UHGV virus genome: UHGV-0125199 | Strand: one strand, 5' to 3' | Length of the DNA: 64,000 nt | From: a virus | In this document: positions 983 through 45,921 of the stretch, piece by piece | How the letters are laid out: each line of letters opens with the position of its first letter | Numbering within the stretch: the first letter of the stretch is position 1 | Program-made: the position numbers and the translations under genes | The notes under the pieces: model-generated | What the model saw: only the letters and a program-made list of their open reading frames with translations | The model's database searches: none | What the model was told of the DNA's origin: nothing

Positions 983-1190
983 TGTTTATGCACAAAAATT
1001 GCCGAATTATTTTGTCAAAAGTTACTAAACCCCTTGTAAATAGTGGGTTTTCAAGAAATCAACTTCGTCCGTAATATGGAAGGATGAGAGTTTTGCTTAT
1101 ATTCAAAATTCTTGAGATGAAATCAAGACTCTTAAGACGACAAACGCTATTGCCAAAGCGTTTAATAAATATGGAGATATATCTATAATA

Positions 1191-1220
1191 AAGCCCCTAT
1201 TGAAAGGGGCTTGGGCTTTG
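1191..1220 (+). terminator. hairpin AAGCCCCT..AGGGGCTT after ORF 11..982
   Basis: 8-bp GC-rich inverted repeat directly downstream of the stop, but only a weak U-tract. Confidence 0.35.
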
Positions 1221-1925: not shown

Positions 1926-1997
1926 AGCCCCATCGCCAAGCGGTAAGGCACAGGACTTTGACTCCTGCATTCAGTAGTTCGAATCTACTTGGGGCTG
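1926..1997 (+). tRNA. tRNA-Gln (anticodon TTG)
   Basis: Manual fold. Acceptor AGCCCCA/TGGGGCT (7 bp), anticodon stem CAGGA/TCCTG with loop CTTTGAC, T-arm AGTAG-TTCGAAT-CTACT, discriminator G, 72 nt. Confidence 0.85.
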
Positions 1998-2181
1998 CTA
2001 TCATCCGAAGTGTTGCGCTGACCGTCAATCAGTGGCGCATAAAAACCTATCCCAGTATAAATCCAGGTGACACTGGCTTATATGAAGATACGCTCTAGGT
2101 TTACTACGTTTTATATAACTATTCACATAACAATTATTTTGTCGTCCTTGTGGATGGGTGTTTTGGACGAGCAAACAATAA

Positions 2182-11313: not shown

Positions 11314-11538
11314 ATGGCTACATTGAGAAAAATGACAGAACAAGAAGTTGCAAATGAGAAAGCAGAAAGGTTAATGAACGGTATTGCTTATTGGGCAGCT
11401 TTTTACAGAAAAAACCCACAACGTTTTTGTAAAGATTATTTAAATATAACTCTCAAATTATTCCAAAAGATATTGCTATATGCAATGATGTGCAATAATT
11501 ATTTTATGTATATTGCCTCTCGTGGACAGGGTTTGTAA
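11314..11538 (+). CDS. terL: terminase large subunit, exon 1 (functional exon probably ends at 11532, after '…ASRGQG')
   Basis: '[23 protein letters not shown]' is the N-terminal P-loop region of terminase ATPases. The stop comes 2 codons after GQG. Confidence 0.8.
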
Positions 11539-28612: not shown

Positions 28613-29164
28613 ATGCCGCTCCTACTGGAATTCTTAGTTCCTGGTTTTATATTTATGACAATGTTTAATTATTTCACATCGTCAAAAATAGAACATTCAA
28701 TTCTATGGAGCGTTGCAATAAGCTACATATTAAAAGCATTATGTAGTTTTTTACACGAGTTCATTTTTAAAGATGTTATTTTCAAATGGAATGAACGTGT
28801 TATAATTCTTGTTTTAATATCAATTATTTTAACGATAATTCTAATTCGATTTTACGAGTCAGAATGGTTGCATAAAATATTCAAATTTATCAATTTCAAA
28901 ACCCAACATGATTGTATTTGGAATGATGTAATTGATATGAAAAGAGGAACAACATTAAAAGTTATTTGTAATGACACAACTTATATAGGAATATTGTATA
29001 TGTTTGAAGAACATGGAAAAGATTCTTGGTTTGTGTTATCAGATTATATTATAGAAGAAAATGGGAATGCTTATGATTCAAGTAAATCAAATTTTCCATG
29101 CAAAATTGCAATTAATTTGAATGATGCAAAAAGAATAGAATTATATTATGGAAACACAGAGTAG
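28613..29164 (+). CDS. membrane protein, paralog A of ORF 45325
   Basis: N-terminal TM helices followed by a soluble domain. Aligns along its length with ORF 45325 ('VPGFIF','IWNDVIDMKRGTTLKV','FEEHG','DAKRIEL'). Confidence 0.6.
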   Translation: MPLLLEFLVPGFIFMTMFNYFTSSKIEHSILWSVAISYILKALCSFLHEFIFKDVIFKWNERVIILVLISIILTIILIRFYESEWLHKIFKFINFKTQHDCIWNDVIDMKRGTTLKVICNDTTYIGILYMFEEHGKDSWFVLSDYIIEENGNAYDSSKSNFPCKIAINLNDAKRIELYYGNTE

Positions 29165-29256: not shown

Positions 29257-30471
29257 ATGAGTGAATATGAAGTACGCGTTGACACGAATGTAGACACAAG
29301 TGAACTCGATTCCGCACAGAAAAAATTAGATAGTTTAGTTAAAAATGGAAAACATATTAAAGTTGATTTTGATATTCAGGGAATGAAGAACCTGAATAAG
29401 ATCAATGGTGTCTTAAAAGGAATCGAAAAAAATAATAAGATCAGTGTAAAAGCTGATATGGATACATCCGGAATTAAAAAAGGATTATCTGATATTGAAA
29501 AAGCGAAACGAAGTGTTTCTACTTTAAAGATTGATGCAGATGTTTCAAAAGCGAATGCAGATTTTAAAAAGTTTGAATCTCTTACGACAAAATCCGCGGA
29601 AAAGGCTCGAAAGTTATTATCTGACATCAATAAAGATATTAATAATGTGAAATTGGCTCCAAATGATTCCATTATGGAAATTAATTTTAAAAAACTTACC
29701 AGTGATTTAGAAAAGTACAGGAATCAGATTAAGGTTGTACAAAATGAGCAAAAAGCTCTTGGTAATTCTATTACATCTGTATCAAAATCATTTAGTAAAA
29801 TTGATGCAGTAACTGCCTCTAACAAGACCTTAACGTGGTTAAAAAACAATAGTCGCGCTGCAAAAGTATATGGCGATCAACTAAAAGAAATTGCAGAATC
29901 TCAGAGAAAAGCAACATCAGATTCAGAGCTAACTTCACTAAATAAAGATTTCAACAAAACTGTATCTGAGGCAAAATTACTTGGACTTACTGGTAAAAGT
30001 TTTACAGCGGAATTTAAACGTGCATTTTCTCAAATTGCACAGTTTACGCAAATTTATGGTGGAATTGAAAATGTAATTCAGACTATTCAAAACTCTGTTA
30101 TTGAATTAAAAAATGTTGATTCTATTTTAACAGAAATTTCTAAAACATCTGATATGACAACAGATCAACTTACAAAACTTGGAGAAACATCTTTTGATTC
30201 CGCAAGCAAGTGGGGAAAGAAAGCAAGTGATTACCTACTTGGTATCCAAGAAATGAGTAGATCTGGCTATTATGGCAAACAGGCTGAACAAATGGCTGAA
30301 ACAAGTATTCTTGCTCAGGCAGCCGGTGATTTAAATTCAGATGTTGCAAATAGTTATCTTTTGGCATCGAATGCCGCATATCAATATTCTGGAAATGTTC
30401 AAAAACTTAATGCATTGCTTGATGGACAAAATATGATTAATATAGTGGTCATGCTATATAGAAATATATAG
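29257..30471 (+). CDS. tail tape-measure protein, segment 1 (TP901-type core, N-terminal part)
   Basis: 'DYLLGIQEMSRSGYYGKQAEQMAETSILAQAAGDL…ANSYLLASNAAYQYSGNVQKLNALLDGQNMIN' is tape-measure core-like. The in-frame tail 'VVMLYRNI*' looks like intron read-through. Confidence 0.8.
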   Translation: MSEYEVRVDTNVDTSELDSAQKKLDSLVKNGKHIKVDFDIQGMKNLNKINGVLKGIEKNNKISVKADMDTSGIKKGLSDIEKAKRSVSTLKIDADVSKANADFKKFESLTTKSAEKARKLLSDINKDINNVKLAPNDSIMEINFKKLTSDLEKYRNQIKVVQNEQKALGNSITSVSKSFSKIDAVTASNKTLTWLKNNSRAAKVYGDQLKEIAESQRKATSDSELTSLNKDFNKTVSEAKLLGLTGKSFTAEFKRAFSQIAQFTQIYGGIENVIQTIQNSVIELKNVDSILTEISKTSDMTTDQLTKLGETSFDSASKWGKKASDYLLGIQEMSRSGYYGKQAEQMAETSILAQAAGDLNSDVANSYLLASNAAYQYSGNVQKLNALLDGQNMINIVVMLYRNI

Positions 30472-31639
30472 CTTCATAGTTGGCTTTTATCCCGGAAACT
30501 CCAGAGATGGACAATCGGGAGGATAAGTTAAATAAAATACGGTAGAAAGAGGATATTATAGAAATAAAATTAAAATCATGGCAAACTCTCGCAAACTGTA
30601 AATTTTGTAATAAAGAGTTTGTAACTACTAAATATAAGGTTAATAATAATAAAAATGGTGTTTTTTGTAGTAGAAGTTGTTATGCTGACTACAAAAAAGA
30701 AACGATGACAGGTTCACAAAATATAAATTATAAAGAAAAGGTAAAGGTTCATTGCGATAATTGTGGTAAGGAAATTGAAAAAATACCATCTTTAACACAT
30801 AATATAAACAAACAAGGAGAAAACCATAACTTTTGTTCTTATGAATGTTATTGGGAATTTCGTAAAAAATATTATGTCGGGGATAAATTATATAATACTG
30901 GAAAAAAGATGGACGAAATTTTTTGCAATAAGGTAAGAGAAGCAACATTAAAACAATATCAAGATGGTATACTTGATAGACAAACAATACCACAAAAGAT
31001 AGTTAATAGTATATTAGAAAAAAATAATATTAATTATATCAATGAAAAAACTTTTAAATATTATTCTGTCGATAATTATTTAATAGAACATAATTTAATT
31101 ATTGAAGTTATGGGTGATTATTTTCATGTGAACCCTTTAATTTATACAGATTCAAATGAGATGAATAATATGCAGAAAAAGGATATTGATAGAGACAAAA
31201 GTAAACATACATATATAAAAAAATATCAGGATGTTGAAATTTTATACCTATGGGAATCCGATATAAAAAATAATCCTTTATTATGTGAAGAATTAATAAA
31301 AAAATATATAGAATCAAATGGCAAGTTGGAAGAATATAATTCTTTTAACTTTTCTTTTTGTGATAACAATTTAAAATTAAATAACAATATTATTAAACCG
31401 TATTTTATTTAACCCCCTAACGACTAAGTTGTAATATGGTAACATATTGCACACGCCGACTTCGATAGATATAGTCTATCCGTTACCTATAAGTCCGTAG
31501 GAACGCCTAACGTAAAACGAGGGAAAAGATATAGTCTAGTCTCACGCTATAATCTAAAAATGAAACGTGAGAGGTAGGATTAACGTCCTATCCGCTTTAT
31601 TGTTATTTAACAATAAAGTCCAATGCTTTGTCCTGGAAG
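30447..31639 (+). mobile_element. group I intron in the tape-measure gene (boundaries within about 10 nt)
   Basis: Non-coding flanks around the HE ORF. R-like 'ACGACTAAG' and S-like 'AAGATATAGTCTAG' elements after the ORF. An ATAGT pentamer is shared at both exon edges. Confidence 0.6.
30705..31412 (+). CDS. EDxHD/Vsr-like homing endonuclease with N-terminal zinc ribbons (the frame is open from 30546, so the real start may be upstream and non-canonical)
   Basis: 'EVMGDYFHVNP' carries the E-D-x-H residues, followed by 'DIDRDKSKHTYIKKYQDVEILYLWESDI'. Several CxxC zinc-ribbon pairs ('CDNCGKEI…CSYEC', 'CKFCNK…CSRSC'). Confidence 0.6.
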   Translation: MTGSQNINYKEKVKVHCDNCGKEIEKIPSLTHNINKQGENHNFCSYECYWEFRKKYYVGDKLYNTGKKMDEIFCNKVREATLKQYQDGILDRQTIPQKIVNSILEKNNINYINEKTFKYYSVDNYLIEHNLIIEVMGDYFHVNPLIYTDSNEMNNMQKKDIDRDKSKHTYIKKYQDVEILYLWESDIKNNPLLCEELIKKYIESNGKLEEYNSFNFSFCDNNLKLNNNIIKPYFI

Positions 31640-32393
31640 CATAGTAATAGAACAAACTAACAGGAACAGTGTATCCATGCAGGATATGGCAGAAGCCACA
31701 ACTCAAGCAGCTTCAATGGCATCAGAATTGGGGGTTCAAGAAAATCAACTTTCTGCGATGATTGGAACAATTGAGTCCAGAACAAAAGCAGGTGGCAATG
31801 AGGTTGGTAATGCGATCAAATCATTGTTGATAAACGTTCAGAATGTAAATAACTCAAAAATTGCAGAAACGTTTAAAAAAGCTGGCGTTGCTCAGACAGA
31901 GTTTGTAAACGGTGTAGAAAAAATGCGTAATCCAATTGAAGTATTGGAGGATCTTGCGAAAGTATTTAATCAATTAGAAGAGTCAGATCCACTGCGTACA
32001 GAAATTCTTACAAATATTGGACAGAAATACCAAGCGAACAAACTAAGTGCTTTATTATCTGGATGGTCTGACTATGAAAAAATGCTTGTAGATTATTCTG
32101 AGGGTACAGGAAGTGCTGCAAAAGAAGCAGAAAAATCTGCAAATAACTGGGAAGGATCTCTAAATAAATTATCAAATACTTGGACTGGATTTATTCAGAA
32201 TTTCGCTAATTCCAACATGATTACTTCTGGATTACAAGGACTTACTGGAATAATTAAAATAATCGACACAGTTGTTTCAAAAGCAGGAACACTCGAAACT
32301 GTTATGGGAGTTTTAGGTGGAGGATTAGCGAGTAAAACAGGATGGGGTAAAACTATCGTAGTTTATAATGCCCCTTTCTATAAGGTTGCATAA
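31623..32393 (+). CDS. tail tape-measure protein, segment 2 (continues the core)
   Basis: 'SVSMQDMAEATTQAASMASELGVQENQLSAMIGTIESRTKAGGNEVGNAIKSLL' continues the TP901 tape-measure core. No RBS before the ATG, and an in-frame TAA lies 3 codons upstream. Confidence 0.8.
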   Translation: MLCPGSIVIEQTNRNSVSMQDMAEATTQAASMASELGVQENQLSAMIGTIESRTKAGGNEVGNAIKSLLINVQNVNNSKIAETFKKAGVAQTEFVNGVEKMRNPIEVLEDLAKVFNQLEESDPLRTEILTNIGQKYQANKLSALLSGWSDYEKMLVDYSEGTGSAAKEAEKSANNWEGSLNKLSNTWTGFIQNFANSNMITSGLQGLTGIIKIIDTVVSKAGTLETVMGVLGGGLASKTGWGKTIVVYNAPFYKVA

Positions 32394-32899
32394 TAACGCC
32401 ATGCAATTAACGTAGAGAGTGTTCATATTATATATCGTAGTGTAATATGACCATCCTTGGAAATATAGATTTTCTAAATTGTCGAATATCGGGGGAAGCC
32501 GTAAGCCTATTTATATAGGTACCGGAGCGATGCAATAAAAGCGTATTATTATATAGAAGAAATACGTTCGTGAAGGAATAAGCATTTAATGCGAAAATGG
32601 TAGTCCCGACGCACTATAACTAAAACATGGAAGTGTAGTTCCATATATAGGGCGCGAGAGACTGACAAGACATGACGTGATACAGGCGTAATTGTATCAT
32701 ATGGTACACAACATACAGTCCGTACCTGGGGAAAGCCCAGGGTAGTCAATATGAGATACGGCAGTATACACTACTGCTCTATTGATGCAAACTACACAAC
32801 CTGTTGCTGACTTGCAAAAACAGGACAGGATTATACGGCGTATCTCTCGTCGTTTTCTAATAGAGATAAAAAAATAGACACAAATTGTTTACATTCTAC

Positions 32900-32927
32900 T
32901 TGACTTAATACAAGAAGAATGTATAAT
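32900..32927 (+). promoter_or_regulatory. sigma70-type promoter: TTGACT, 16-nt spacer, TATAAT
   Basis: Exact consensus hexamers. Confidence 0.6.
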
Positions 32928-32970
32928 AATACATGAGTTAAAAAATATAGCTCGAAACACCACGATGTAA

Positions 32971-32998
32971 GGACAGGGGATTACCTCCTGTCCTTTTG
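32971..32998 (+). terminator. rho-independent terminator
   Basis: GGACAGG-ggattacct-CCTGTCC hairpin followed by TTTTGTT. Confidence 0.6.
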
Positions 32999-33140
32999 TT
33001 ATGTTGTGGAAACAAATAAATAGAATAATTTTTTCTTTCCAAAAACACAAGAGATATTTTAAATATAGAGAAAACAACTATATATAGGAAAAATTTATAT
33101 AATTAGTGTGTTTTTTATTTTTCCGCACTATATCTAGCGG

Positions 33141-33169
33141 TTGAACAAATTTAATAAAAAATGTATAAT
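33141..33169 (+). promoter_or_regulatory. sigma70-type promoter: TTGAAC, 17-nt spacer, TG-TATAAT
   Basis: Near-consensus -35 hexamer with an extended -10. Confidence 0.6.
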
Positions 33170-33271
33170 AAGATACACAAAAAATAGTCTAATTTATTTC
33201 TCACGTTATATTTCGACATTTTGTTTAATTTTTTTGATGTATAATTGCTTCAAATACCAAGGGGTGATTAT

Positions 33272-33484
33272 ATGAAGTTAGGTAAAAAAGGATCCATACA
33301 TACAAAAGAGGAGGTAAGACATATGGCAGTCTCAATGGCAGTTGTACCGTTATTAAAAGGGGAAGCGGCTACTAAAATCGTAGATGATTTTAAAAGCAGC
33401 AAATTAAAACCATTTACAGACGATCAACGTAAGAAGACTAATGCTAAAGTAGCTGAGATACTCAAAGGTAAACGTAATGGATAA
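33272..33484 (+). CDS. small basic protein (70 aa), putative antitoxin-like partner of the downstream GNAT gene (the ORF track starts it at 33245)
   Basis: ATG after AAGGGGTGA. Its stop overlaps the GNAT gene start (ATGGATAA). Confidence 0.45.
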   Translation: MKLGKKGSIHTKEEVRHMAVSMAVVPLLKGEAATKIVDDFKSSKLKPFTDDQRKKTNAKVAEILKGKRNG

Positions 33485-34034
33485 CACAGAAAACTTTCAA
33501 TATAAAGAAGAGTTACTAAGCAAAGAGTCATTAAGACATTTTATGTTAGTAGGTGATTTTTGCTGTGGTGCAGACAATCCATTAAATACTTTCTTATCAG
33601 ATGATGCATTTGATTATGCAGAAGAAAAGCAAGGACACACATACATTTTAATGGACAACGAATACACTTGTATACTAGCATTTTACACAATTAAGGCTAA
33701 TGCAATTCATACATTTAATATAGATACAAACGAATATATGGCGTTGCCTGTTGTGGAAATAGCAAGAATTGCTGTAGATTTTGACTTCCAAGGGAATGGT
33801 TTAGGGAAAATATTATTTTATGATTATATAATACCTAAAATAAAAAAAGTAAGTAAGATTATTGCAATATATGGTATCATTGTATTTGTAGAATCGGAAA
33901 ATGGTCAAGGAATACAATTTTATAATTCACTAGGATTTAAAAGAGCCAATAATGAAATACAAAAAGCAGTTGGTGATTCTTATAACGAAAAATGTGAATT
34001 GTATGTGCTGAAATTAGATGATATAAAAGAGTAG
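33477..34034 (+). CDS. GNAT-family N-acetyltransferase (possible AtaT/TacT-like toxin)
   Basis: Acetyl-CoA motif A 'FQGNGLGKILF'. About 185 aa. Translationally coupled to the small upstream ORF. Confidence 0.65.
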   Translation: MDNTENFQYKEELLSKESLRHFMLVGDFCCGADNPLNTFLSDDAFDYAEEKQGHTYILMDNEYTCILAFYTIKANAIHTFNIDTNEYMALPVVEIARIAVDFDFQGNGLGKILFYDYIIPKIKKVSKIIAIYGIIVFVESENGQGIQFYNSLGFKRANNEIQKAVGDSYNEKCELYVLKLDDIKE

Positions 34035-34056
34035 GGAGTAATCCTACTCTTTTATT
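34029..34056 (+). terminator. rho-independent terminator
   Basis: GAGTAGG-gagtaat-CCTACTC hairpin followed by TTTTATTAT. Confidence 0.6.
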
Positions 34057-34159
34057 ATATTGGCTGATGTTTTTATTTTATAGAAACATATGTTCAGACT
34101 ACTCTTCTATTCATTATTGGTATATAATGGAAATACTAAAGATGAATAGGAGTAATATA

Positions 34160-34969
34160 ATGCCGAAATTTAAAGCCAGTTCTGTTATTTCGATGCTGAA
34201 ACGGTTTACAGATGAAGAAAAAAATAAAAAAACTCAGTCTTGTCCGGAATTGAAGAATGAGATTAAAAATGTATTAGACGATACAAAGATCATTCTATAT
34301 AAACAATCCAGAGAGGACGCGATTAAATATATTTTATGGCAAGGATTATTGAATAGATATGGGATTTTTGGGAGCAACAGAAGACAACACCGCTTATTTG
34401 GTCAAGATAAAACAGATTATTATGCTCAAGAGTACCAACATGGAGATATTGTAAGTATAGACTTCGGAACATCGAATATTGGAAGCGAATTTTCGTTTAC
34501 TCATACCGCACTTGTTTTGCATGAATTTACTGATTTTTTAATTGTTATACCTATTACTACTGCTAAAGATGGTAGATTAGAGAATAAGCCATTGGATGAA
34601 CAGGAATCAACATTTGTAATACATAAAAGTGATTTTTCGTTTATAGAAGCTGATTCATATGTATTAATATACCAGATAAAATCTATTTCAAAAAATAGAA
34701 TCACGAAAAGAATTGGGAATATAACAGGGTCAAAGTTTTTGTGTGACGTTGATAGCGAAGTGTTTAACATACTATTAGATCCGCTTTCAAAAAAAATATC
34801 AGAAGAAATAACAAACCTAAATATAAAGATATCAGATTATAAAAATATGATTGAAGAAAAAGATGAAAAAATAAGAGAATTAAATTGCTTGGTGGAAAAT
34901 TTAAAACAAAATATTAAAAATAATGATAAAAATGTGTTGACAAATCTGGATTTCCATGATACCATATAG
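34160..34969 (+). CDS. MazF/PemK-like domain protein with a C-terminal coiled coil (the ORF track starts it at 34067)
   Basis: ATG after AGGAGT. 'HGDIVSIDFGTSNIGSEFSFTHTALVLHEFTDFLIVIPITTAKDG' matches the PemK/MazF 'GDIv.vdf…G.E…RPalVl…V.PiTs' pattern. Confidence 0.45.
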   Translation: MPKFKASSVISMLKRFTDEEKNKKTQSCPELKNEIKNVLDDTKIILYKQSREDAIKYILWQGLLNRYGIFGSNRRQHRLFGQDKTDYYAQEYQHGDIVSIDFGTSNIGSEFSFTHTALVLHEFTDFLIVIPITTAKDGRLENKPLDEQESTFVIHKSDFSFIEADSYVLIYQIKSISKNRITKRIGNITGSKFLCDVDSEVFNILLDPLSKKISEEITNLNIKISDYKNMIEEKDEKIRELNCLVENLKQNIKNNDKNVLTNLDFHDTI

Positions 34970-35010
34970 GCATAAAAGATAGATATTTTTAGCAATGGCT
35001 ATTAAATATA

Positions 35011-35050
35011 ACTACATGGAGAGGTCTTTACGAATAAACGTAAAGACCTT
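35011..35050 (+). terminator. rho-independent terminator
   Basis: GGTCTTTACG-aataaa-CGTAAAGACC (10 bp) followed by TTCTTACTATTT. Confidence 0.55.
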
Positions 35051-35074
35051 CTTACTATTTAAAAATATATTTAC

Positions 35075-35108
35075 GTTTTAATTAAAAAAGACTGGGTTAT
35101 CATACCTA
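35075..35108. terminator. bidirectional terminator (it serves the minus-strand gene 35201..35638)
   Basis: AGACTGGG..CCTAGTCT hairpin flanked by A-runs and T-runs on both strands. Confidence 0.55.
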
Positions 35109-35200
35109 GTCTTTTCTCATGTATATTTTTAAATTCCAACTACTCTCCTCCCCACTAAAAATAGCTCTTACAGTTATTACGCTTCCACTGTTTACCGATA

Positions 35201-35638
35201 TTATTTTGGTATATTATTGATAATTGCACTAATGTATTCCGGATCATTTATTATTGCATTAAAAATTGTACTGGCGAGTGACATAATTCCATGAATAGAC
35301 GCAACCCCCATTTTCTTCGCAGATTTTTTCGTTGCATTCCATATTGTCTCTGGTCTAACCGTATTTATAAAATTATGACCGCTCCATGAAATGTCATCAA
35401 CATGACCTGATAATTTTCTGTCTTTCCCATTATAATTTTTATATCCAGTAATATAGCCAGCGCTCATTAATTGTGTCAGTGTATATGCAACATCTTCTTC
35501 GGAATATTTATTGTCTTGTGATAGTTCATTTATTATCGTTTTAAAAGAAATACCTTTTATAGAAAAATATTCACACATCACAAGATTATCCTCTAAATAT
35601 ATTAATGTGTCTCTTACACATTCAGGATTTAGTTTCAT
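35201..35638 (-). CDS. hypothetical protein (145 aa)
   Basis: Minus-strand ORF with an ATG after GGAGGTATAAC (reverse complement). Confidence 0.55.
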   Translation of the reverse strand: MKLNPECVRDTLIYLEDNLVMCEYFSIKGISFKTIINELSQDNKYSEEDVAYTLTQLMSAGYITGYKNYNGKDRKLSGHVDDISWSGHNFINTVRPETIWNATKKSAKKMGVASIHGIMSLASTIFNAIINDPEYISAIINNIPK

Positions 35639-35668
35639 AAGTTATACCTCCAAGAAAGGAATGATTAA

Positions 35669-35890
35669 ATGAAAGATATTACTATTCATTATAAAACAGA
35701 TGATGAAATGACAAATAAAGATAATCCTCTTTATGATCTACGCAGCCGAATAGCGGTTCTAGTCGATGGAAAACCAATTGAAAGATTAAAAAGGTTCTCA
35801 ATTGATTTTGATGTTAACGACATAGAACCAACTTATTGTGTGGAGCAATATATGGATTTTCCCAATAACGATCAAGACTATACGATATAA
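35669..35890 (+). CDS. small hypothetical protein (73 aa)
   Basis: ATG after AAGAAAGGAATGATTAA. Confidence 0.35.
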   Translation: MKDITIHYKTDDEMTNKDNPLYDLRSRIAVLVDGKPIERLKRFSIDFDVNDIEPTYCVEQYMDFPNNDQDYTI

Positions 35891-35906
35891 GTCTATCACT
35901 CTCCTC

Positions 35907-36386
35907 TCACGGTTTCCATGTATGACCACAGTTAGAACATCTATTGACTGTTTTATTACTTCCTAAGAATCCAGTCAGGATTGAGTAGCCTTTTTGCCCG
36001 GCGGTAATTGATGTAGATCCACATTTCGGACAACGTGGTTTAGATTCCTCTGCTTTCTTACGTTCTTCCTCTGCTTCTTTGGCTTGAACTTGTGACCGGA
36101 ATTGCGACATTTTTAATTCATATTCTATGATATCGTCATCGTGTAATTTTATCATTGCATCGTAGAAATCTGTGGAATCTGAGATTTTTGACAGAATAAT
36201 AAAATCATCATCCGGCATTGATGTCATGATTATTGGATGACCATATGGGCATTCTGTAGCAGTGTCTTCATAGAAATACACATAACCATTTCTATAAATT
36301 CCATCTTGTATTTTTTCTTTTTTGCATGTTGGACATATTTTTAAATGATTAACCATATTTATCCCCCTATATATTTTTAATTGCAA
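35907..36386 (-). CDS. zinc-ribbon protein (159 aa)
   Basis: Two CxxC…CxxC ribbons ('CPTCKKEK…CPYGH', 'CPKCGS…CSNCGH'). RBS GGGGGAT precedes the ATG (reverse complement). Confidence 0.55.
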   Translation of the reverse strand: MQLKIYRGINMVNHLKICPTCKKEKIQDGIYRNGYVYFYEDTATECPYGHPIIMTSMPDDDFIILSKISDSTDFYDAMIKLHDDDIIEYELKMSQFRSQVQAKEAEEERKKAEESKPRCPKCGSTSITAGQKGYSILTGFLGSNKTVNRCSNCGHTWKP

Positions 36387-36510
36387 GTTATTTATATATA
36401 GTTTATCAGAACAATAGACGATTGTAAACTACGACTCTGATGCGGATAAATTCACATCTATTTTTGACAATTTTAAAAAGAAAACAAAACCTAAATTTAA
36501 TCAAGATACA

Positions 36511-39500
36511 TTGGATTTTGCAAAAGAATTCAATAAGCTGGGTAAGAATTCAAATATTGATAATATAGTTTCTCAATTTAAAGAGGTGGATTCTAGTGTT
36601 GTTGATATGGCAAAGTCTGTAAAAGATGGTTCTATGTCAATGGATGAGTTCATTGAAAAATCTACAAAAGCTACAACTACCTCTTCTAAATTCAGTAGAA
36701 TGGCAAAAACTGCTGGTACCGCACTGAAGTCAATTGGTGCTACTGCTCTGAATATGTTTGGTGGTTTTCTTATTGCTGAGGGGCTTAGTCTTGCAATAAA
36801 AGGAATTTATAATCTTATAAACGCAGACAAGATTGCAATTGAAAATGGGGAAAAGGCTCAACAGGAAATTAAGGAAGTATTTGATACTTACAACGGAAAA
36901 GTCGATACGATTAAAACGCTAGGAAAGAAATTTGCCCAAGATGCAGATTCAATCAAGACCACAGGTGATGCCGTAGAATCACTAACTAAAAAATATGCAG
37001 AACTTAGAAAAGGTGTCAGTTCAGATAATACAAATCTTACTCTTTCTGAAAAGGAATACCAGGACTATCTTGACATAAGCAATCAATTAGCTGAATCATT
37101 CCCATCACTTGTATCTGGTAGTGATGCAGCCGGAAATTCTATTTTAAATTTAGGTGACAATGCGTCTGTTGCCGCTGACAAAATGGAAAAACTGCAAAAA
37201 ACACAAATGACGTTGGCTCATAATGATATTGTTGATAAATCAAGAGATACATTTAGGGGTGCATTTGAAAAAGCAGACAATATTGAAGATGAGATAAAAT
37301 CATTAAAAGGTCAAGAAAAACAATTAAAAGAATCTGCTTCTCAAATATCTTTAAGCCGAGATGAAATCAGAGAACAGCTTAAAAGTGGACATCTTATCTT
37401 CAAGGATATGTCTAAAACCGACGCAGACAAGATGGAAAAGGCACTTGGAGCATATGTCGGGAAAGAATTGGGTCGTGTCAGACGGTCTGACGTATCTTTG
37501 GATGGTCACACTATTGACAGAATCGAATTTACAATTGATCCTGTAGTAGATGAGAACAAACTTAATGAAGCAACTGATATGATTGAGGCTAGAGTTTTAG
37601 CTGGAGAAGATGAGATTGCAGCTAAAAAAGGTGAAATACAATCCAATATTAAAGCACAAGAACAAAAGCAAAAAGAAGTCTGGAATAGTTTTGCTGAAAG
37701 CACAGTAAAACCTTATCTTGAAACATCTGCTGCTATTTCTGATATGCCTGTTGAATTACTTAATGCAGTAGAAAGTAATTTACAGAATTTAGATTGGAAA
37801 AAACTTTATAAAGAATACGGCGGAGATGCCGATCAGATGCTTTTGGATGAATTAGTTTCGCCGCTAAACAGTCTAGAAAAACCGGCACAAGAAGCTTTGA
37901 CAAAGGCTCTTAGTTTAGACCCATCAACAATGTCTATTGCTGAATATAATAAAGCTATTGACTCTGCTTTGAAGGAAGTTTCTGATAACAAAGCAACCAG
38001 AAAAGAATGGAAAAATAGATTCTTTAAATCTGCTATCGATTCTGCAACTGAAGATGCTAATGCATTAAAAGAGCAGTTTAAAGGCATAGATAAAGAGATC
38101 GACAACTTAAGCGGAGAAGACAGGGAGTTAGCATACCAAATTGCTATTGAGGATGAGGATTTCGACGGAACTTGGCAAGATGTAATGGACAAGATTAAGA
38201 CCATGAAAGAAGAAGCCGAAAATCCGATGACATTCAATCTTGGTACATTTACATCAGAAGTTGGAGATGCGATTGCTTTAATTGATACATTAAATGCTGC
38301 TCTTGCAAATAGTTATTCTGGAAAAGGATTAAGCGTATCTTATGAAGTAGACGAAGAAACTGGTGTTGTACAGTTAACTGGAGACATCGCAAATCTTCAA
38401 GCAGCTTATTCAGATTTAGAAGGATATGATCCATCTATTCTATTCGAAAGAACAGCAAATGGTGTACATATTAACAGAGAAGCTCTTAGACAATTACAGG
38501 CTCAAGAAGAAGCTTTGAACAAGTCTAAATGGCTCGAAGACGAAAAGAATCTTACAGATCAATTAGCAGTGGCTACCAACAAATTAGCAAATGCAAAGAA
38601 TTCTGGAAGTGAATCTGATGTTGCGTCCGCACAAGCAACCGTGGATTCATTACAACAACAGTTGGAGCAAGTTCAATTGTTGTCAGCTGCATATGACGGA
38701 GCCACTTCTGCATATCAGCAATGGATAAATGTACAATCATCTGGTGAAGATGGAGATATGTATAGAAACGTCTCTGAAACTATGAAAACAAGGGGCGATG
38801 CGTTATACAAAGAAGGTCGATATAATACAGAAGAATTTCGTGCAATTGCCGACTACTTCTCCAATGAAGATTTGTCTACTGCACCAATGGAAAAACTTGT
38901 TGCTGCTTATGAAAATGCTGCTAATGCAAGAGAAAGATACTTTACCGGGAATAAACAGGGTATTGATAATTTCATGGCTGATATGCAAAATGATGCAGAA
39001 TTAATGTCAAAAGGGATTGTCAAAACACTTGAAGACGGAACTATGGAATTCCAAACTGGTTCAGATAAAATATTGGCTGATAAATTCCATCTTAGCGAAG
39101 AAGCAATTCAATCTATTTTAAGAGCTGCATCAGAATATGATGATGGTATAAAAATAGGTAAAATTGACGGTTCAGAAGACTTTAATGCATCTATTGATGA
39201 AATGAAATCAAAAGCTGACGAAGCAAAAGGCAAACTTGAAGAATTAAAGAATGCTGGAAATCAGAGTCTGGATTTAGATTTTAATTTCGATAGTACAGAC
39301 TTAGAAGATTTAGATAGTCAGATTGAACGTGCAAAATCTAATCTTGATCAATTCAAAAATTCAGATGGTCAGATTGATTTAAATGTCGAAGGCGCTCAAG
39401 AAGCTGTTACAATTTTACAAACCCTTATTCAGCAAAAGATTATGGTGAGCCAGCCGGCAATTATGACAATTGACACGACTGGACTTGATGAAGCTACTGC

Positions 39501-42330
39501 TGATACGGTTTCTAAGTTGCAAGAATTTCAAGAGCAATTAAACACTGTTAATTCATTAGAGATGCAACAAGATTTTGGAATTCAAGTAGACACTAACCAA
39601 CTTGACGCTGCGAAGGCTAAGGCTCAAGAATTATTCTCAGAATTGCAAGGAAAATCAGAAGATGGTTCACTTGAAATTACACCAGATGTAAAAGTTGATA
39701 CAGGATCAATGGAGTCATTGGAGCAAAGTTTGTCTTCTATGACGCCTGAAATAAAAGCAAAAATTGTTCCAGATGGAAATGTATCTGATACTCTGGTTAC
39801 TGGTGATATTAAGGTTGAAGACCAGACTGCAAAGGTAGATTATGTAAGAGGAAGCCAAGAAGCTCCTGCTGACAGAACTGCTTCTGTTGATTATATTAAA
39901 AAGGGCACAACACAAATTGAACCTGCCGACAAGAGTGCTGCTGTAACTTATAGTAAGATTGGCGGAGAACAAGCACCTCCATCGGACAAGAACGCAAATG
40001 TTAATTATAAAAAAGGGGAACAAGAAGCACCGAGTAAGAAAAATGCAGTTGTCGATTATAAACGTGGATCACAAGAATTGCCTGATTCACCTAAAAGTGC
40101 AACTGTTAATTATACTCTTGGAAATGTTGCTACTCCACCAGACGCTTATGTAAAAGTACACTATGATACATCCGGAAAACCAAAAGGTAGTAGTCCAGCC
40201 AATGGTACTGCTCATTCACAAGGAAGTGCCAACTCTGGTCATGCATTTTCTAGTGGATCGTGGGGATTAAAACAACCTGAAAAGGGCGCTCTGATAAATG
40301 AATTAGGTGCAGAAATTATTGTCAGAAATGGACAGTGGTTTGTAGAAAATAATGGATATCCTACTATCACTAATCTCAAAAAGAATGATATCGTGTTCAA
40401 TCATGAACAATCCAAAGCTTTGTTAGAACGAGGATATGTTACTGGATCTCATGCTAAATTAGCATATGAAGGCAATTCTCATGCAAAAGGAACTGCATTT
40501 TCTGGGGGGTCTTGGACTTTTGGGAATACAGGTGGTGGAAACATTGGAGGCACCAACACTACTTCCAACAATCTCAACTCCGCATCAAATAATCTTGCCA
40601 AAGCTGCTTCTGATACTTCCAAAGCAGCATCTGATACATCCGAAGCTGCCGAGAAATTATCAGAAGCAGTATCCGGATACACGGACTGGGTTGAGGTGTT
40701 ATTCAAACGCTTAGAATCACAGTATGATTTGCTGATGAGTCAAATGGAGCGTATCGCACATCTCCCAGACAAGCAACAGAAACTGTATGAGGCAATGTCT
40801 AAGAACAGTGAACTACTGAATAGGACTCAGCAAGCAATTGGGACTTATCAAAGTCATTTTGATTCTATTGTACAACAGAGTGGAATAAACCCACTTATCG
40901 TACATCAGATTCAGAACGGGTCTATGGATATTTCAAAATACGACCAGGATACTCAAAAAATAATCAGTGAGTTGCAGTCTTATTATGATAAGCTCGTAGA
41001 CTGCAATAAACAGTACGATGACCTCTTAAATAAACAGAGTGAACTGGCGCAGACAGCATTGGATAATATTGAAGATTACATCGATATGATGACTGGAATT
41101 GAGTCCTCTGCTGTAGATTATCAGGAAGCATTACGTGAATTAGCAGCTGCAAAAGGAGAATCTGCATATTCCGATAATATGTATGGCTCTCTGCAAGAAT
41201 CTATTAAAAATCAACAGGACGTTGCAGGTAAATTACAGTCACAGATTAAATCATATCAAGATGAAATCAATAAACTCATGGCAAATGGGTATATGGCTGA
41301 ATACTCAACGGAATGGTTTGAAGCACAAGCTGCATTAAATGGATTCCGGCAAGAAGCTGCTGAAGCTGAGAAAACACTGATTGAATTACAAGATCAGTTA
41401 AGAGAACTTGATTTACTGAAACTGCAACAGGTTATTGATGAGTTAGACAGAACTGCAAAACGACTGGAAAACAATTCTGACCTTACAGAATCAAAAGGTG
41501 AACAGGTATCTGAAAAAGATTTACAGGCACAGCTTGACAATGCAAATGCACAGATTCAGGCAAATTACGATAAGCGGAATGAACTATTAAAGGATCAGGC
41601 AAAATATGATGTCGGTTCTGACAAATATAATGAAATTGCGGAAGAGATAGAAAAGCTCGATGACGCTATCTTTGATGCAATGGAGAACATTGAAGACCTC
41701 AAAAATAAAATCTGGGAAGTAAGATGGCAACCGTTCTTTGATGGACAGGAAGCATTAGGTGATCTGATTGACCAGACAGATGATTTAAGAGGACTTTTAA
41801 ATAGTGATGCTTTTCTTGATAAGAACGGCGGTTTAACTGTAGATGGTATTGCAAATTTGTCTTTGATTAGTCAGGGTATGAATGCTGCGAAACAGCAAAT
41901 CAAGAATTATCAAGAGGCATTGAAGAAGCTTGATGAGGATTTAAAGAACGGGAATATCTCAACAAGTGAATATAAGGAGCAGCAAAAAGAATTTCTCAAT
42001 CAGATTTCAAGCTCTGTTGGCGTTGTTGAAGACTACAAAGATTCTATTGTTGATCTCTATACAAAGATGCTTGAGCAAGAGAATGAAGTTGCTCAAAAAT
42101 CGATTGATAAGCAGAAGGAATTGTTGGATATCAAAAAGAAAAATGCTGATTACAATAAGACTCTGCGTAAACAGGCTAGAGATGTGAATACATTGAAAGC
42201 TCAGATTTCAGCACTCGAAGGCGTGAAGTTATTTGCGCGACTTCTATTTAATAGCGGGAAAGTCCCCACAACCCTATCTTGCTACAACGGAACTGGAAAC
42301 GGTAAACGTGAATGCGGTACGAGTTTATAA
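36511..42330 (+). CDS. tail tape-measure protein, segment 3 (frame open from 36418; the functional end is probably near 42208, with intron read-through after that)
   Basis: 1939-aa helical/coiled-coil protein with TM-like 'ALNMFGGFLIAEGLSLAIKG'. No RBS before the TTG at 36511. The terminal 'VKLFARLLFNSGKVPTTLSCYNGTGNGKRECGTSL' looks non-coding. Confidence 0.8.
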   Translation: MDFAKEFNKLGKNSNIDNIVSQFKEVDSSVVDMAKSVKDGSMSMDEFIEKSTKATTTSSKFSRMAKTAGTALKSIGATALNMFGGFLIAEGLSLAIKGIYNLINADKIAIENGEKAQQEIKEVFDTYNGKVDTIKTLGKKFAQDADSIKTTGDAVESLTKKYAELRKGVSSDNTNLTLSEKEYQDYLDISNQLAESFPSLVSGSDAAGNSILNLGDNASVAADKMEKLQKTQMTLAHNDIVDKSRDTFRGAFEKADNIEDEIKSLKGQEKQLKESASQISLSRDEIREQLKSGHLIFKDMSKTDADKMEKALGAYVGKELGRVRRSDVSLDGHTIDRIEFTIDPVVDENKLNEATDMIEARVLAGEDEIAAKKGEIQSNIKAQEQKQKEVWNSFAESTVKPYLETSAAISDMPVELLNAVESNLQNLDWKKLYKEYGGDADQMLLDELVSPLNSLEKPAQEALTKALSLDPSTMSIAEYNKAIDSALKEVSDNKATRKEWKNRFFKSAIDSATEDANALKEQFKGIDKEIDNLSGEDRELAYQIAIEDEDFDGTWQDVMDKIKTMKEEAENPMTFNLGTFTSEVGDAIALIDTLNAALANSYSGKGLSVSYEVDEETGVVQLTGDIANLQAAYSDLEGYDPSILFERTANGVHINREALRQLQAQEEALNKSKWLEDEKNLTDQLAVATNKLANAKNSGSESDVASAQATVDSLQQQLEQVQLLSAAYDGATSAYQQWINVQSSGEDGDMYRNVSETMKTRGDALYKEGRYNTEEFRAIADYFSNEDLSTAPMEKLVAAYENAANARERYFTGNKQGIDNFMADMQNDAELMSKGIVKTLEDGTMEFQTGSDKILADKFHLSEEAIQSILRAASEYDDGIKIGKIDGSEDFNASIDEMKSKADEAKGKLEELKNAGNQSLDLDFNFDSTDLEDLDSQIERAKSNLDQFKNSDGQIDLNVEGAQEAVTILQTLIQQKIMVSQPAIMTIDTTGLDEATADTVSKLQEFQEQLNTVNSLEMQQDFGIQVDTNQLDAAKAKAQELFSELQGKSEDGSLEITPDVKVDTGSMESLEQSLSSMTPEIKAKIVPDGNVSDTLVTGDIKVEDQTAKVDYVRGSQEAPADRTASVDYIKKGTTQIEPADKSAAVTYSKIGGEQAPPSDKNANVNYKKGEQEAPSKKNAVVDYKRGSQELPDSPKSATVNYTLGNVATPPDAYVKVHYDTSGKPKGSSPANGTAHSQGSANSGHAFSSGSWGLKQPEKGALINELGAEIIVRNGQWFVENNGYPTITNLKKNDIVFNHEQSKALLERGYVTGSHAKLAYEGNSHAKGTAFSGGSWTFGNTGGGNIGGTNTTSNNLNSASNNLAKAASDTSKAASDTSEAAEKLSEAVSGYTDWVEVLFKRLESQYDLLMSQMERIAHLPDKQQKLYEAMSKNSELLNRTQQAIGTYQSHFDSIVQQSGINPLIVHQIQNGSMDISKYDQDTQKIISELQSYYDKLVDCNKQYDDLLNKQSELAQTALDNIEDYIDMMTGIESSAVDYQEALRELAAAKGESAYSDNMYGSLQESIKNQQDVAGKLQSQIKSYQDEINKLMANGYMAEYSTEWFEAQAALNGFRQEAAEAEKTLIELQDQLRELDLLKLQQVIDELDRTAKRLENNSDLTESKGEQVSEKDLQAQLDNANAQIQANYDKRNELLKDQAKYDVGSDKYNEIAEEIEKLDDAIFDAMENIEDLKNKIWEVRWQPFFDGQEALGDLIDQTDDLRGLLNSDAFLDKNGGLTVDGIANLSLISQGMNAAKQQIKNYQEALKKLDEDLKNGNISTSEYKEQQKEFLNQISSSVGVVEDYKDSIVDLYTKMLEQENEVAQKSIDKQKELLDIKKKNADYNKTLRKQARDVNTLKAQISALEGVKLFARLLFNSGKVPTTLSCYNGTGNGKRECGTSL

Positions 42331-43702
42331 CTCAACAGTCTTCGGATAGAAACCATAAAAAACAGATAGGTCAGGGATAACCGGGTGTGCAAGTCACCCA
42401 GACGCAACGAACTTCCTAAGTCATATATGATTTATGATATGGAAGACGCTCAACGACTGGTAAGTCCTATATATTATAATATGTAGGCATAGGGTTACAA
42501 GCGATTGGTAACTCGAAAAATATAGACTATTTGAATAAGAAATGAAATGAACAATTAAATATGATATATGTTATAATTAAGATACATCTATGATGCACTT
42601 ATGAATACAAGAACGTATGTTTTGTATATATTTAACAATTGTAAACATATCACTTTGTTTGTATTTTGTGTAGAATTTTCTCCGTATATGGGATATAATA
42701 ATAACAAGAAAACAGCAGTGTTTTCTTAAATATATCTGGTGTGATGCAGCGTAATATGACTGCTATAAATAATCTTTGAAGTGTACGCCGGGTTAGGAAC
42801 CGGTTTACATGGAGATTTACAAAGGTGCGAGGATTTACCATAGCCTAACTAGGAACTATGTTCTGAAAGAAAGTCCTTGAATGAATAGAAGGGTCATCAC
42901 CAGTGACTCTTCTATTTTTATACCAAGGAGAAGTTATGGATAATATATCATTGGCACTAAATAATTTCAAAGAATTGATGAATTGCAATTATGATTTTAT
43001 AATAGTTTGTAATAAGCAAAAATCAGATATAAAACTTACATTTGAATCAAAAGATTTTTATCATTTAGTAGGGTTTCAATACTTAAAAGATATAGACATC
43101 CCTAAAAATGAAAAACAGTTATTTAAAAAAATAGAATCTCTTAAGATTACTGATGAGTATTTAGGCAAAAGTGTGTTTTATACAAAAGTGGATTACAGCT
43201 ATGCAAATGTAAAAGAACGAATTTCCGGATTTAAAGATGTTGATAAATTTATAGAAAACAAAAATATTATATGTAGATATATAAAAACTAATAACCCTTC
43301 ATCGGCTATAAAAGCGGATTATTTAATAAAAAGTACTTTATATAACAGAACGGCATATATGTTTTTGAGAAAAAGAAGCAAAGGAGATGAATATTGTATG
43401 TGTTCATTTTTTATGCAACCACAAAATGAATATATAGGTCAAAAAACATATTGGTTGTATAAAGCCAAAAAACGTATATCGGACAATTATGTTAAAATAT
43501 TGTTAGATAGAATATCGGAATCCACAGAGCAGTAACAGGTAATACTACTGCTCTTTTATTATGTCCAAAATCATTTCAAAAAAAATTCCAAATTATTCAA
43601 ATAGAAGGTATAGTCTCAACTTCTGAGGATAACTCAGAGAAGTTCATAAGAGAACTGCATAGCGTAGCGAACTATGTGAAGATAATTGAAATAATGCGAG
43701 TG
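42209..43702 (+). mobile_element. third intervening sequence in the tape-measure gene (intron-like; boundaries within about 25 nt)
   Basis: The coiled-coil reading frame resumes at 43690 with no start or RBS. GCTCAG is shared at both exon edges. Structured RNA-like flanks. An internal hairpin plus T6 at 42884..42918. Internal ORF. Confidence 0.5.
42936..43535 (+). CDS. intron-encoded protein of unknown family (candidate novel homing endonuclease or defence protein)
   Basis: ATG after AAGGAGAAGTT. No LAGLIDADG, GIY-YIG, HNH or EDxHD motif recognised. Confidence 0.55.
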   Translation: MDNISLALNNFKELMNCNYDFIIVCNKQKSDIKLTFESKDFYHLVGFQYLKDIDIPKNEKQLFKKIESLKITDEYLGKSVFYTKVDYSYANVKERISGFKDVDKFIENKNIICRYIKTNNPSSAIKADYLIKSTLYNRTAYMFLRKRSKGDEYCMCSFFMQPQNEYIGQKTYWLYKAKKRISDNYVKILLDRISESTEQ

Positions 43703-45324: not shown

Positions 45325-45921
45325 GTGATCAGTATAAACTGGATTACTGAAATTATAAATCAATTACCACAAATTCTTTCTTATATTGTTCCTGGATATA
45401 TATTTTTAACTATATATCAATGGACAAGATTTAGAGATGGAGATTCTCTAAAAAATATTGTATTGAAAAGTATTGTGGTATCATATGTTATTAAAATTCT
45501 TTTAAACATATTATTTAAAGAATTACATATTGCAATAAATGATGAGATCATATTTGTAGGGATATGTATCATAATTGCAACAATTTCTTCTATATTGTTA
45601 AGCATAATTATATCATCTCGTAGATATAATAAAATACTGCGGATACTAAATATAAGTCGCACAACAAACAAAAACATATGGGATGATGTATATCAAAATG
45701 GCACCGCATTAAAGATATATCAAAGCGATGGAACATTTTACGCCGGTCATTTAAGATTTTGTGAAGAGAATCAGAGAGAGCCACTTGTTGTATTATCAAG
45801 GTATGGTCTGTTTGACGAGAATAATAATATCCTCATGGACAAAACAGAGGATAGTTCAGAAGAAATAATGCTGAATACAAAAGATTTTAAAAAGATAGAG
45901 ATTAAACATTTTAAAAAATAA
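45325..45921 (+). CDS. membrane protein, paralog B of ORF 28613
   Basis: Aligns with ORF 28613 ('VPGYIF','IWDDVYQNGTALKI','FCEENQ','DFKKIEI'). Start codon context is unclear. Confidence 0.55.
   Translation: MISINWITEIINQLPQILSYIVPGYIFLTIYQWTRFRDGDSLKNIVLKSIVVSYVIKILLNILFKELHIAINDEIIFVGICIIIATISSILLSIIISSRRYNKILRILNISRTTNKNIWDDVYQNGTALKIYQSDGTFYAGHLRFCEENQREPLVVLSRYGLFDENNNILMDKTEDSSEEIMLNTKDFKKIEIKHFKK

Follow-up and report, generated by a model that had tools for sequence, protein, structure and literature searches.

The viral genome UHGV-0125199 raises the question of how a phage could make its tape-measure protein (TMP), the product of an essential tail gene, when that gene is broken by kilobases holding other genes. 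In the 64,000-nt stretch of this genome that was analysed, referred to here as the window, the TMP gene is split into segment 1 (29257..30438), segment 2 (31656..32348) and segment 3 (36421..42330); the frame of segment 2 halts at 32393, and it reopens past a TAG at 36415-17. A first-pass annotation had placed a self-contained gene island at 32355-36420, within the TMP frame, and had offered two alternatives for it, an intron colonised by a defence or moron cassette or an insertion that split the gene. The analysis favoured the first of these, on the strength of uninterrupted TMPs in relatives, selection on segment 3 and covariation in P1, P10 and the ribozyme core. Thus, with a probability of about 0.8, positions 32349..36420 would be one group I intron in the TMP gene of a large temperate phage of Mediterraneibacter gnavus, carrying accessory cargo. 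The interruption and its 3' edge stayed where they had been placed, while the 5' edge moved by 6 nt, to 32349, with the P1/P10 junction. The exons, the intron and its guide are listed here (a slash marks a splice junction).

31656..32348, + strand: TMP exon (segment 2); the uninterrupted TMP of L008 aligns to 31656..32318, and the last five bases, GGGGU (32344-48), are the exon strand of P1
32349..36420, + strand: whole group I intron, 4072 nt, from the P1/P10 junction; splicing would give ...GGA UGG GGU/AUU GUA AAC (GWG/IVNYD), in frame
32358..32374, + strand: internal guide sequence; 32358-69, GUAGUUUAUAAU, pairs with exon positions 36421-32, AUUGUAAACUAC (P10), and 32370-74, GCCCC, lies in P1
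36421..42330, + strand: TMP exon (segment 3); its first 12 nt, AUUGUAAACUAC, are the P10 target

Two viral contigs, L008 and L009, encode a single uninterrupted TMP of 2734 amino acids (aa), along which segments 1, 2 and 3 align one after another, so that in this comparison with relatives lacking the island, which the first-pass annotation had proposed, the segments appear as one gene ancestrally. TMPs of distant GenBank phages also cross the junction within one alignment. In a set of ∼70 related TMP loci, three frames are uninterrupted and the majority break off at the equivalent site, and near-identical TMP pieces are annotated in M. gnavus genomes, ending at the same ...GWGKTIVVYNAPFYKVA. 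For its part, segment 3 lacks both a start codon and a ribosome-binding site at its conserved beginning; the first in-frame start candidate is a TTG at 36511, 30 codons in, with no ribosome-binding site evident upstream of it. The first 40 codons showed a ratio of nonsynonymous to synonymous substitution rates (dN/dS) of 0.08-0.10 in comparisons with L001 and L002, that is, purifying selection, and in divergent relatives protein conservation starts exactly at I(V/F)NYD (IVNYD or IFNYD), whatever precedes it. The lack of a start, the low dN/dS and the point at which conservation begins indicate together that the sequence from 36421 onward is probably translated as a continuation of the upstream sequence. 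The 1939-aa frame of segment 3 is unbroken in several relatives.

The ends of the intron were deduced from the pairings of the guide with both exons. In P1, the exon end GGGGU (32344-48) pairs with GCCCC (32370-74), CCCC (32371-74) lying on GGGG and U32348 forming a wobble with G32370. The deduced junction is GGU/AAAAC ... GACG/AUU, and the predicted ligated-exon sequence is ...GGATGGGGT/ATTGTAAACTAC. A U·G pair was found at the splice site in six of the seven aligned sequences. L001, which is in the alignment, as well as L004 and L006, has C at exon position -1 and A as the guide base, a double change; in mutational work on group I ribozymes, C·A can substitute for U·G at the splice site. The other arm of the guide pairs with the start of the 3' exon, with 12 of 12 contiguous pairs in the window (GUAGUUUAUAAU with AUUGUAAACUAC), 12 of 12 pairs in both L035 (AAACUUUACAAU with AUUGUAAAGUUU) and L058 (CAUAGUUUACAA with UUGUAAACUAUG), and 11 of 13 in L109 (CAUAGUUGAAUUC with GUUUUCAACUAUG). 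Across these four lineages the guide co-varies with the exon, and guide co-variation was also noted in L001 and L002. The exon starts of L035 and L058 were predicted from their guides before the 3' ends were retrieved, and both matched; in L109, 10 contiguous positions agreed with the guide-based prediction and positions +2 and +3 did not. Searching by pattern for the predicted tail of L010 followed by exon 2 gave only two matches, both due to chance. The terminal intron base is G (G36420), likewise in L001, L002, L007, L030, L032, L035, L058 and L109. In L007, which has a second ribozyme type at the same TMP site, exon UAGAU pairs with guide GUGG-GUCUA, and exon 2 begins with UCAC. The C·A double change, the tracking of the exon by the guide and the G at every 3' end thus support this model of the junction.

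Two earlier versions of the junction were discarded. In one, GGUU (32383-86) served as the guide strand of P1, but these bases belong to P2, a helix that co-varies among homologues. The other, with the splice site ACU/AUC (32354/32355) implied by the coordinates of the first-pass annotation, would leave the cleavage site with U-A in place of a wobble and offers no contiguous P10.

Structured, group I-like RNA had been noticed at the 5' end of the island, and this observation held. The helices of the ribozyme are as follows.

32349..32830, + strand: ribozyme body, from RNAalifold, pair counts with controls and the fold z-score
32374-91 with 32401-19, + strand: P2
32479-82 with 32665-68, + strand: P3 (weak)
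32489-94 with 32604-09, + strand: P4
32498-502 with 32597-601, + strand: P5, with P5 extensions
32610-18 with 32646-54, + strand: P6
32660-64 with 32716-20, + strand: P7
32673-85 with 32692-708, + strand: P8
32725-30 with 32736-41, + strand: P9
32800-05 with 32819-24, + strand: distal hairpin

The first 522 nt gave a minimum free energy of -139.8 kcal/mol (z = -3.0), and none of 100 shuffles folded as well. A blast search with the conserved core returned homologues with 67-77% identity (L021/L035, L027/L037, L028, L025 and L058), and RNAalifold, run on a seven-sequence alignment, recovered P2, P4, P5 with its extensions, P6, P7, P8 and the distal hairpin; P1, P3, P7 and P9 were added by hand before pairs were counted. 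Over the resulting 99 pairs, 95.0% of the cells were standard-paired, compared with 34-47% when the partners were slid by 1-3 columns. Thirty-six pairs were altered on both sides (2-7 when slid), a number reached by none of 500 shuffles, and the covariation score was 0.362, compared with 0.04-0.09 in the controls. P2 and P4-P9 lie in the canonical group I order, and UUGUCG-AAU-AUCGGGGG-AAG, GUAGUCCCGACGC, GAGAGACUGACAAG and AACAUACAGUCC resemble the P3/J3-4/P4, Q, R and S parts of the RF00028 consensus. By megablast and blastn, neither the region nor the ribozyme had a match among 50,697 GenBank phages.

A different group I ribozyme, with clear P/Q/R/S elements, occupies the same TMP site in L005 (10778..11382) and L093 (10411..11590). 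That of L005 reached 23 bits with RF00028 (E 0.064), short of the gathering score, and that of L093 again has a reverse-strand zinc-ribbon gene, the ZnR gene described below, at its 3' end.

A further pairing joins the ribozyme to the far end of the intron.

32810..32817, + strand: loop motif ACUUGCAA; pairs with the 3' tail motif and co-varies in L058 and L035
36357..36420, + strand: intron 3' tail; holds UUGCAAGU (36381-88) and the terminal G36420

The loop of the distal hairpin, ACUUGCAA, is complementary over 8 bp to UUGCAAGU in the tail, 32 nt ahead of the terminal G. In L058 the loop is ACUUGGAA and the tail UUCCAAGU, and in L035 AUUUGGG pairs with CCCAAAU, 30 nt ahead of the terminal G; this last tail motif had been predicted from the L021 loop, AUUUGGG, and was later found in the full locus, L035. 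In the three introns the tail motifs sit 30-41 nt before the terminal G. Shuffled tails equalled the loop-tail match in 13 of 2000 trials for the window, 2 of 2000 for L058 and 97 of 2000 for L035. The tails of L030, L032 and L033 also carry UUGCAAG, and the identity between L032 and L033 begins exactly there. Two long-range pairings considered early, GUCGUUUUCU with AGAACAAUAGAC and UCUAUUG with CAAUAGA, were dropped, since neither is conserved in L001 or L002. Judged from these complementarities, the 12-bp P10 and the loop-tail pairing are a plausible way of bringing the 3' exon to the core, 3.6 kb away.

From these elements a course of splicing can be proposed. The first ∼480 nt would fold into the ribozyme, and the guide (32358-74) would hold the 5' exon through GGGGU and GCCCC, whose U·G wobble lies at the cleavage site. 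Once the first step is complete, the same guide would capture the 3' exon by the unusually long P10 of 12 bp, while the 8-bp pairing of the loop (32810-17) with the tail (36381-88) would close the interior of ∼3.5 kb and bring the distant 3' splice site to the core. Exon ligation would then yield ...GWG/IVNYD... and one continuous tape-measure protein.

Several results weigh against a working intron. The collections searched yielded neither a close allele lacking the intron nor a spliced cDNA with the predicted junction: the predicted spliced or empty-site junction, TGGGGNATTGTAAACTAYGA, gave chance matches only in metagenome and genome contigs, and a protein search across the junction found no close uninterrupted homologue. 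Rfam searches, at permissive as well as gathering thresholds, covered the window, the 700-nt ribozyme, L005/L007 and L025, and RF00028 had no match at E <= 10 for window positions 32300-33000 or for the compact homologue L025; such a match is not treated here as defining for group I membership. Within the core, P3 has just 3-4 bp, and both P3 and P7 are invariant, so that covariation cannot test them; P9 is poorly aligned and 65% paired. In addition, the structure used for the pair counts was largely derived from the same alignment, and three of its seven sequences are close relatives. Finally, terminator-like hairpins on the sense strand (32835-53, 32969-95 and 34026-52) and two convergent genes lie inside the intron, in the path of any RNA polymerase that transcribes the TMP operon.

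The sense-strand hairpins that directly follow the ribozyme and the convergent genes in between would also fit bipartite (trans) splicing, which we consider unlikely. One transcript would carry the 5' exons and the ribozyme, ending at 32835-53 or 32969-95; a second would start in the 3' part of the island and carry the tail and exon 3, and the two would be joined through P10 and the loop-tail pairing and then ligated. The intermolecular-style pairings are unusually long and co-vary, and the block of ribozyme and cargo has an evolutionary history separate from that of the block of ZnR, tail and exon. However, long pairings of this kind serve cis capture of a distant 3' splice site equally well, and the + strand promoter-like sites upstream of the tail (36102-31 and 36330-59) are weak: the analysis turned up no + strand promoter ahead of the tail that was good or conserved, and the candidates score 9/12, chance level in AT-rich DNA. 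To our knowledge, trans-splicing group I introns occur only in organelles.

It is very improbable that the island, or a decayed intron, simply split the TMP gene by insertion, leaving segments 1-2 and segment 3 as separate proteins, or leaving segment 3 unmade and the prophage defective. The lack of an Rfam match, the internal terminators and the failure to recover a spliced product or empty site would all agree with this, and a cryptic prophage is conceivable because M. gnavus chromosomal contigs contain the sequence. Yet purifying selection acts on segment 3 from the first codon onward, although neither a start codon nor a ribosome-binding site is present where its conservation begins, and the 1939-aa frame of the segment is intact in several relatives; the guide tracks each host's exon 2, which is sensible only if the pairing is used; the core helices stay paired through 36 double changes; and no terminal direct or inverted repeats, recombinase or transposase were found. 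Excision at the DNA level, by site-specific recombination before late expression as in developmentally excised elements, is hardly credible. The first-pass annotation had pointed to TIV codons at both edges, which are indeed present (ACT ATC GTA and ACG ATT GTA) and lie in similar 9-nt stretches, ACTATCGTA and ACGATTGTA, that recombination could have used. These repeats are short and imperfect (7/9), a repeat search found no flanking direct or inverted repeats, no island open reading frame (ORF) contains an integrase, recombinase or transposase domain, and the P1/P10 junction lies elsewhere (GGU/...G/AUU), so that the TIV codons appear incidental. A single intron spliced in cis thus remains the preferred reading, and it is followed below.

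Downstream of the ribozyme, the intron holds the following features.

32835..32869, + strand: border of ribozyme and cargo; two mutually exclusive hairpins, ACGGCG with CGUCGU plus a U tract and AUCUCU with AGAGAU, and a conserved loop, GUCGUUUUCUAAU
32835-53, + strand: weaker terminator-like hairpin
32900-27, + strand: promoter-like site, 11/12, one of the two best sigma-70-like matches in the region
32969-95, + strand: strong terminator hairpin, ∼65 nt after the promoter-like site at 32900-27
33141..33169, + strand: promoter-like site, 10/12, upstream of the small ORF-GNAT pair; also one of the two best matches
33272..33484, + strand: small ORF, candidate antitoxin; conserved core of 53 aa from ATG 33323
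33477..34034, + strand: GNAT acetyltransferase, 185 aa, with a QGNGLG acetyl-CoA motif; Pfam Acetyltransf_7/1, PDB, and phrog_1758 at E 6.5e-26
34026-52, + strand: terminator-like hairpin straddling the GNAT stop codon, seen by eye
34048..34140, + strand: portable promoter/5' untranslated region cassette, shared with cargo genes of L007, L001 and L015
34067..34969, + strand: PemK/MazF-domain protein with a C-terminal coiled coil; domain at aa 125-223, likely true start ATG 34161 after AGGAG
35021..35050, no strand assigned: hairpin between the convergent PemK-like (+) and DUF2513 (-) genes
35201..35638, - strand: DUF2513 protein, 145 aa; Pfam E 1.9e-19, phrog_585; homologue in the same position in L058
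35669..35890, + strand: orf73, 73 aa, between two reverse genes; no family match; 100% identical in L002 and L109
35907..36356, - strand: ZnR, 149 aa, a zinc ribbon at each terminus (N and C) and a conserved DIIEYELKMSQFR helix; its gene is the constant one at the 3' end of these introns
36400..36428, - strand: ZnR promoter-like site, TTTACA-17-TAAACT with TG; overlaps the 3' splice site

The two sigma-70-type promoters and the four hairpin terminators of the first-pass annotation could all be found again. The promoters are the two best matches in the region, where the total of 32 promoter-like sites is at chance level for AT-rich DNA (26 ± 6 in shuffles); of the hairpins, those at 32969-95 and 35021-50 were recovered together with the weaker one at 32835-53, and that at 34026-52 was seen by eye. 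Its two reverse-strand genes are present (DUF2513 and ZnR), together with the forward 73-aa ORF that it did not list. The portable cassette (...GTTCAGACTACTCTTCTATTCATTATTGGTATATAATG...) precedes unrelated accessory genes at 34048..34140 in the window, at 11354..11427 in L007, at 16051..16132 in L001 and in L015. The border motif is common to other ribozyme types, in L007, L013 and L015.

In L007 (∼11285..11325) both border hairpins stay paired through changes, the motif occurring in at least two ribozyme types, and at 32835..32869 it looks like a recombination or regulatory joint. The unit at 32900..32995 may encode a small RNA or act as an attenuator; in L013, where it follows a different ribozyme, it is 91% conserved.

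A small ORF coupled to a GNAT gene in an AtaR/AtaT- or TacA/TacT-like arrangement had been proposed, and the arrangement stood, while an antitoxin assignment found no family behind it. The stop codon of the small ORF (33482-84) overlaps the start of the GNAT gene (33477), and the GNAT protein is akin to TacT, KacT and AtaT. Its 15 best solved-structure matches are acetyltransferases of ∼165-195 aa with nearly full-length coverage (E 2e-8 to 6e-4), the best being 7ak7, 7ak8, 5fvj, 7f36, 5zgn (KacT), 5xun, 6gts and 6ajn (E 2e-8 to 2e-6, residues 16-160); those other than KacT we take to be TacT, AtaT and ItaT. Compared with the type II toxin-antitoxin pairs of GNAT and ribbon-helix-helix (RHH) proteins (TacAT, AtaRT, KacAT and ItaRT), the window has a GNAT of similar size with the acetyl-CoA motif and a small overlapping upstream gene, but the upstream protein, of 53-70 aa, matches no DUF1778/RHH or other family: neither as a single sequence nor as a profile did it match Pfam, NCBIfam, PHROG or PDB. 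Its AlphaFold2 model is all-helical and of low confidence, with a predicted local distance difference test (pLDDT) score of 62.

The MazF/PemK-like domain that had been noted in the next gene was clearly recovered (PF02452, E 8.1e-10, 39.3 bits against a cutoff of 23.1; PHROG 'MazF-like growth inhibitor'). The profile searches that the first-pass annotation had suggested returned toxin relatives for GNAT and a PemK domain, and nothing for DUF1778/RHH. While it shares the PemK_toxin domain with MazEF and PemIK, the window protein is 269-300 aa long instead of ∼110, with extra sequence at both ends, an N-terminal extension and a coiled-coil tail, and it has its own portable promoter cassette and no neighbouring antitoxin-like (MazE/PemI) ORF. 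No island protein matched the PADLOC defence models at E <= 0.01, NCBIfam gave nothing specific for the island proteins, and the island ORFs had no integrase, recombinase, transposase or TnpB family match and no recognisable endonuclease. A toxin-antitoxin or defence role of the cargo, as suggested by the domain similarities, is reasonable but unproven.

The cargo differed among related introns. Window positions 32334..36159 and L109 share 97.4% nucleotide identity, whereas their TMP exons are ∼30% identical. The products of the L109 small ORF, GNAT, PemK, DUF2513 and orf73 genes are ∼100% identical to those of the window, while its ZnR reaches 52-62% identity and it has another guide sequence. 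A different or smaller interior was seen in L004, L007, L015, L025, L035, L058 and L093. The cargo of L035 comprises two proteins read by eye as Panacea/DUF4065-like plus four more ORFs, that of L015 an ORF with a HELAH metalloprotease-type motif and others, and those of L007 and L058 a membrane protein, and L093 has little beyond ZnR. By these comparisons, the interior behaves as an exchangeable cassette.

ZnR, in turn, abuts the 3' tail in every complete relative examined (L001-L003, L007, L030, L032, L035, L058 and L109), and in at least 35 of the ∼70 TMP loci a ZnR homologue lies on the reverse strand, 1.2-9 kb downstream. The family is large and unannotated, with at least 566 database clusters; a search of 50,697 GenBank phages gave no real match. 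The predicted structure is confident (pLDDT 84) and resembles no solved fold.

In L032, a 61-aa ORF (613..798) repeats the start of TMP exon 2 (MIFNYDKDNG...) between tandem ZnR genes (55..546 and 800..1231), and this duplicated unit of ZnR and exon start suggests recombination at the junction. L111 has four ZnR copies.

If the island is spliced out as proposed, its interior would be dispensable for splicing and would be made up of self-contained cassettes that bring promoter-like sites and terminator-like hairpins of their own: perhaps a small RNA, then the small ORF with the TacT/AtaT-like GNAT, the long PemK-domain protein, and DUF2513 with orf73. The prophage would probably express these genes in accessory roles of the toxin-antitoxin, exclusion or defence type, and recombination may swap them between phages. 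The reverse-strand ZnR gene would be the constant partner of the intron, for which mobility, maintenance or regulation can be considered.

The closest precedent is the IStron, a group I intron fused to an IS200/IS605 or IS607 element, in which the ribozyme comes first, kilobases of genes other than homing endonucleases follow it, and the 3' splice site comes at the far end; splicing renders its insertions into coding genes phenotypically silent (PMC10690162, citing Braun 2000 and Tourasse 2014). IStrons such as CdISt1 of Clostridioides difficile and those of Bacillus cereus and C. botulinum have the same layout as the island in the window. In contrast to them, the window island has no tnpA/tnpB match, omega-RNA or transposon ends; no terminal repeats were found, and Rfam detected no RNA in its 3' part. 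Its cargo consists of several apparently independently promoted genes on both strands, including toxin-antitoxin-like ones, with a conserved reverse-strand zinc-ribbon gene at the 3' end; its host gene is a phage structural gene entered at one fixed site, and its spread looks like recombination or homing at a homologous site rather than transposition.

Classical phage group I introns typically measure ∼0.25-1.5 kb and carry one sense-strand endonuclease ORF looped from a peripheral helix. With those of T4 td, nrdB and sunY, SPO1 DNA polymerase, Twort and terminase genes, the window intron shares P1, P10, the terminal G and an essential phage gene as host, as well as a patchy distribution with near-identical copies in divergent hosts. 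It differs in its size of 4.1 kb, its five or six genes, some of them antisense, its predicted promoters and terminators, the lack of a recognisable endonuclease, and the 12-bp P10 with the extra loop-tail pairing. Other reports place introns in phage structural and tail genes (e.g., PMC3706429) and also in terminase and polymerase genes.

We would tentatively go further and suggest, as an idea that is probably wrong in part or whole, that these introns may form a distinct class of composite mobile element in phages of gut Firmicutes. The ribozyme would be a 'silent docking site' for an exchangeable multi-gene defence or toxin island in an essential tail gene, ZnR would be a new intron-associated mobility or maintenance factor, and the joining of the exons would be controlled either by antitermination or by trans splicing of two transcripts that P10 and the loop-tail pairing keep in contact. 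Such gating would tie the production of tails to the transcriptional state of the island. The usual picture of a group I intron is that of a minimal selfish RNA with at most a homing endonuclease, and IStrons showed that they can hide a transposon; the same trick may hide a whole exchangeable island of accessory genes in an essential structural gene of a human-gut prophage. In a literature search, no report of toxin or defence genes as the cargo of group I introns turned up. The TMP site would be a hotspot for accessory genes, at which annotation pipelines may mis-call several truncated TMP genes. The intron would also be a natural example of a ribozyme that captures a splice site 3.6 kb away, which may help in engineering large-cargo or split introns, and it draws attention to an abundant, uncharacterised zinc-ribbon family tightly linked to intron 3' ends.

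Other interruptions were observed in the TMP genes. The first one in the window (30439..31655) contains R/S-like group I motifs and a zinc-finger ORF (30705..31412) with weak HNH/homing-endonuclease matches. This ORF is 95% identical in L007, whose exons are just 42-59% identical, and the interruption is missing from L005 and from M. gnavus protein P0010. The junction given by the intron-less alleles, QNMI/TNRN, makes its last base A, not G. L001 (3343..5234) and L006 (10504..12395) have an extra insertion of ∼1.9 kb in TMP segment 2, at aa 167/168, which the window lacks, and the P0016 contig has yet another interruption, within segment 3. Shortly after the end of the segment 3 frame at 42330, which has an odd C-terminal tail, a drum RNA was detected on the + strand at 42771..42881 (66.3 bits against a gathering score of 43), preceding the phrog_3446 ORF at 42903..43535. 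This region may be a further TMP interruption; the uninterrupted L008 TMP aligns only up to 41700.

A membrane-protein family flanks the TMP gene in the window (28613..29164 and 45325..45921), its two members being 30% identical (E 4e-17) with no database match. Similar membrane-protein genes were seen by eye as intron cargo in L007 (11695..12219) and L058 (11554..12132), and they could be of the exclusion or abortive-infection type. Far from the TMP gene, a full-length ROOL RNA lies on the + strand at 1231..1828 (340.9 bits, E 6e-78), adjoining tRNA-Gln (1926..1998).

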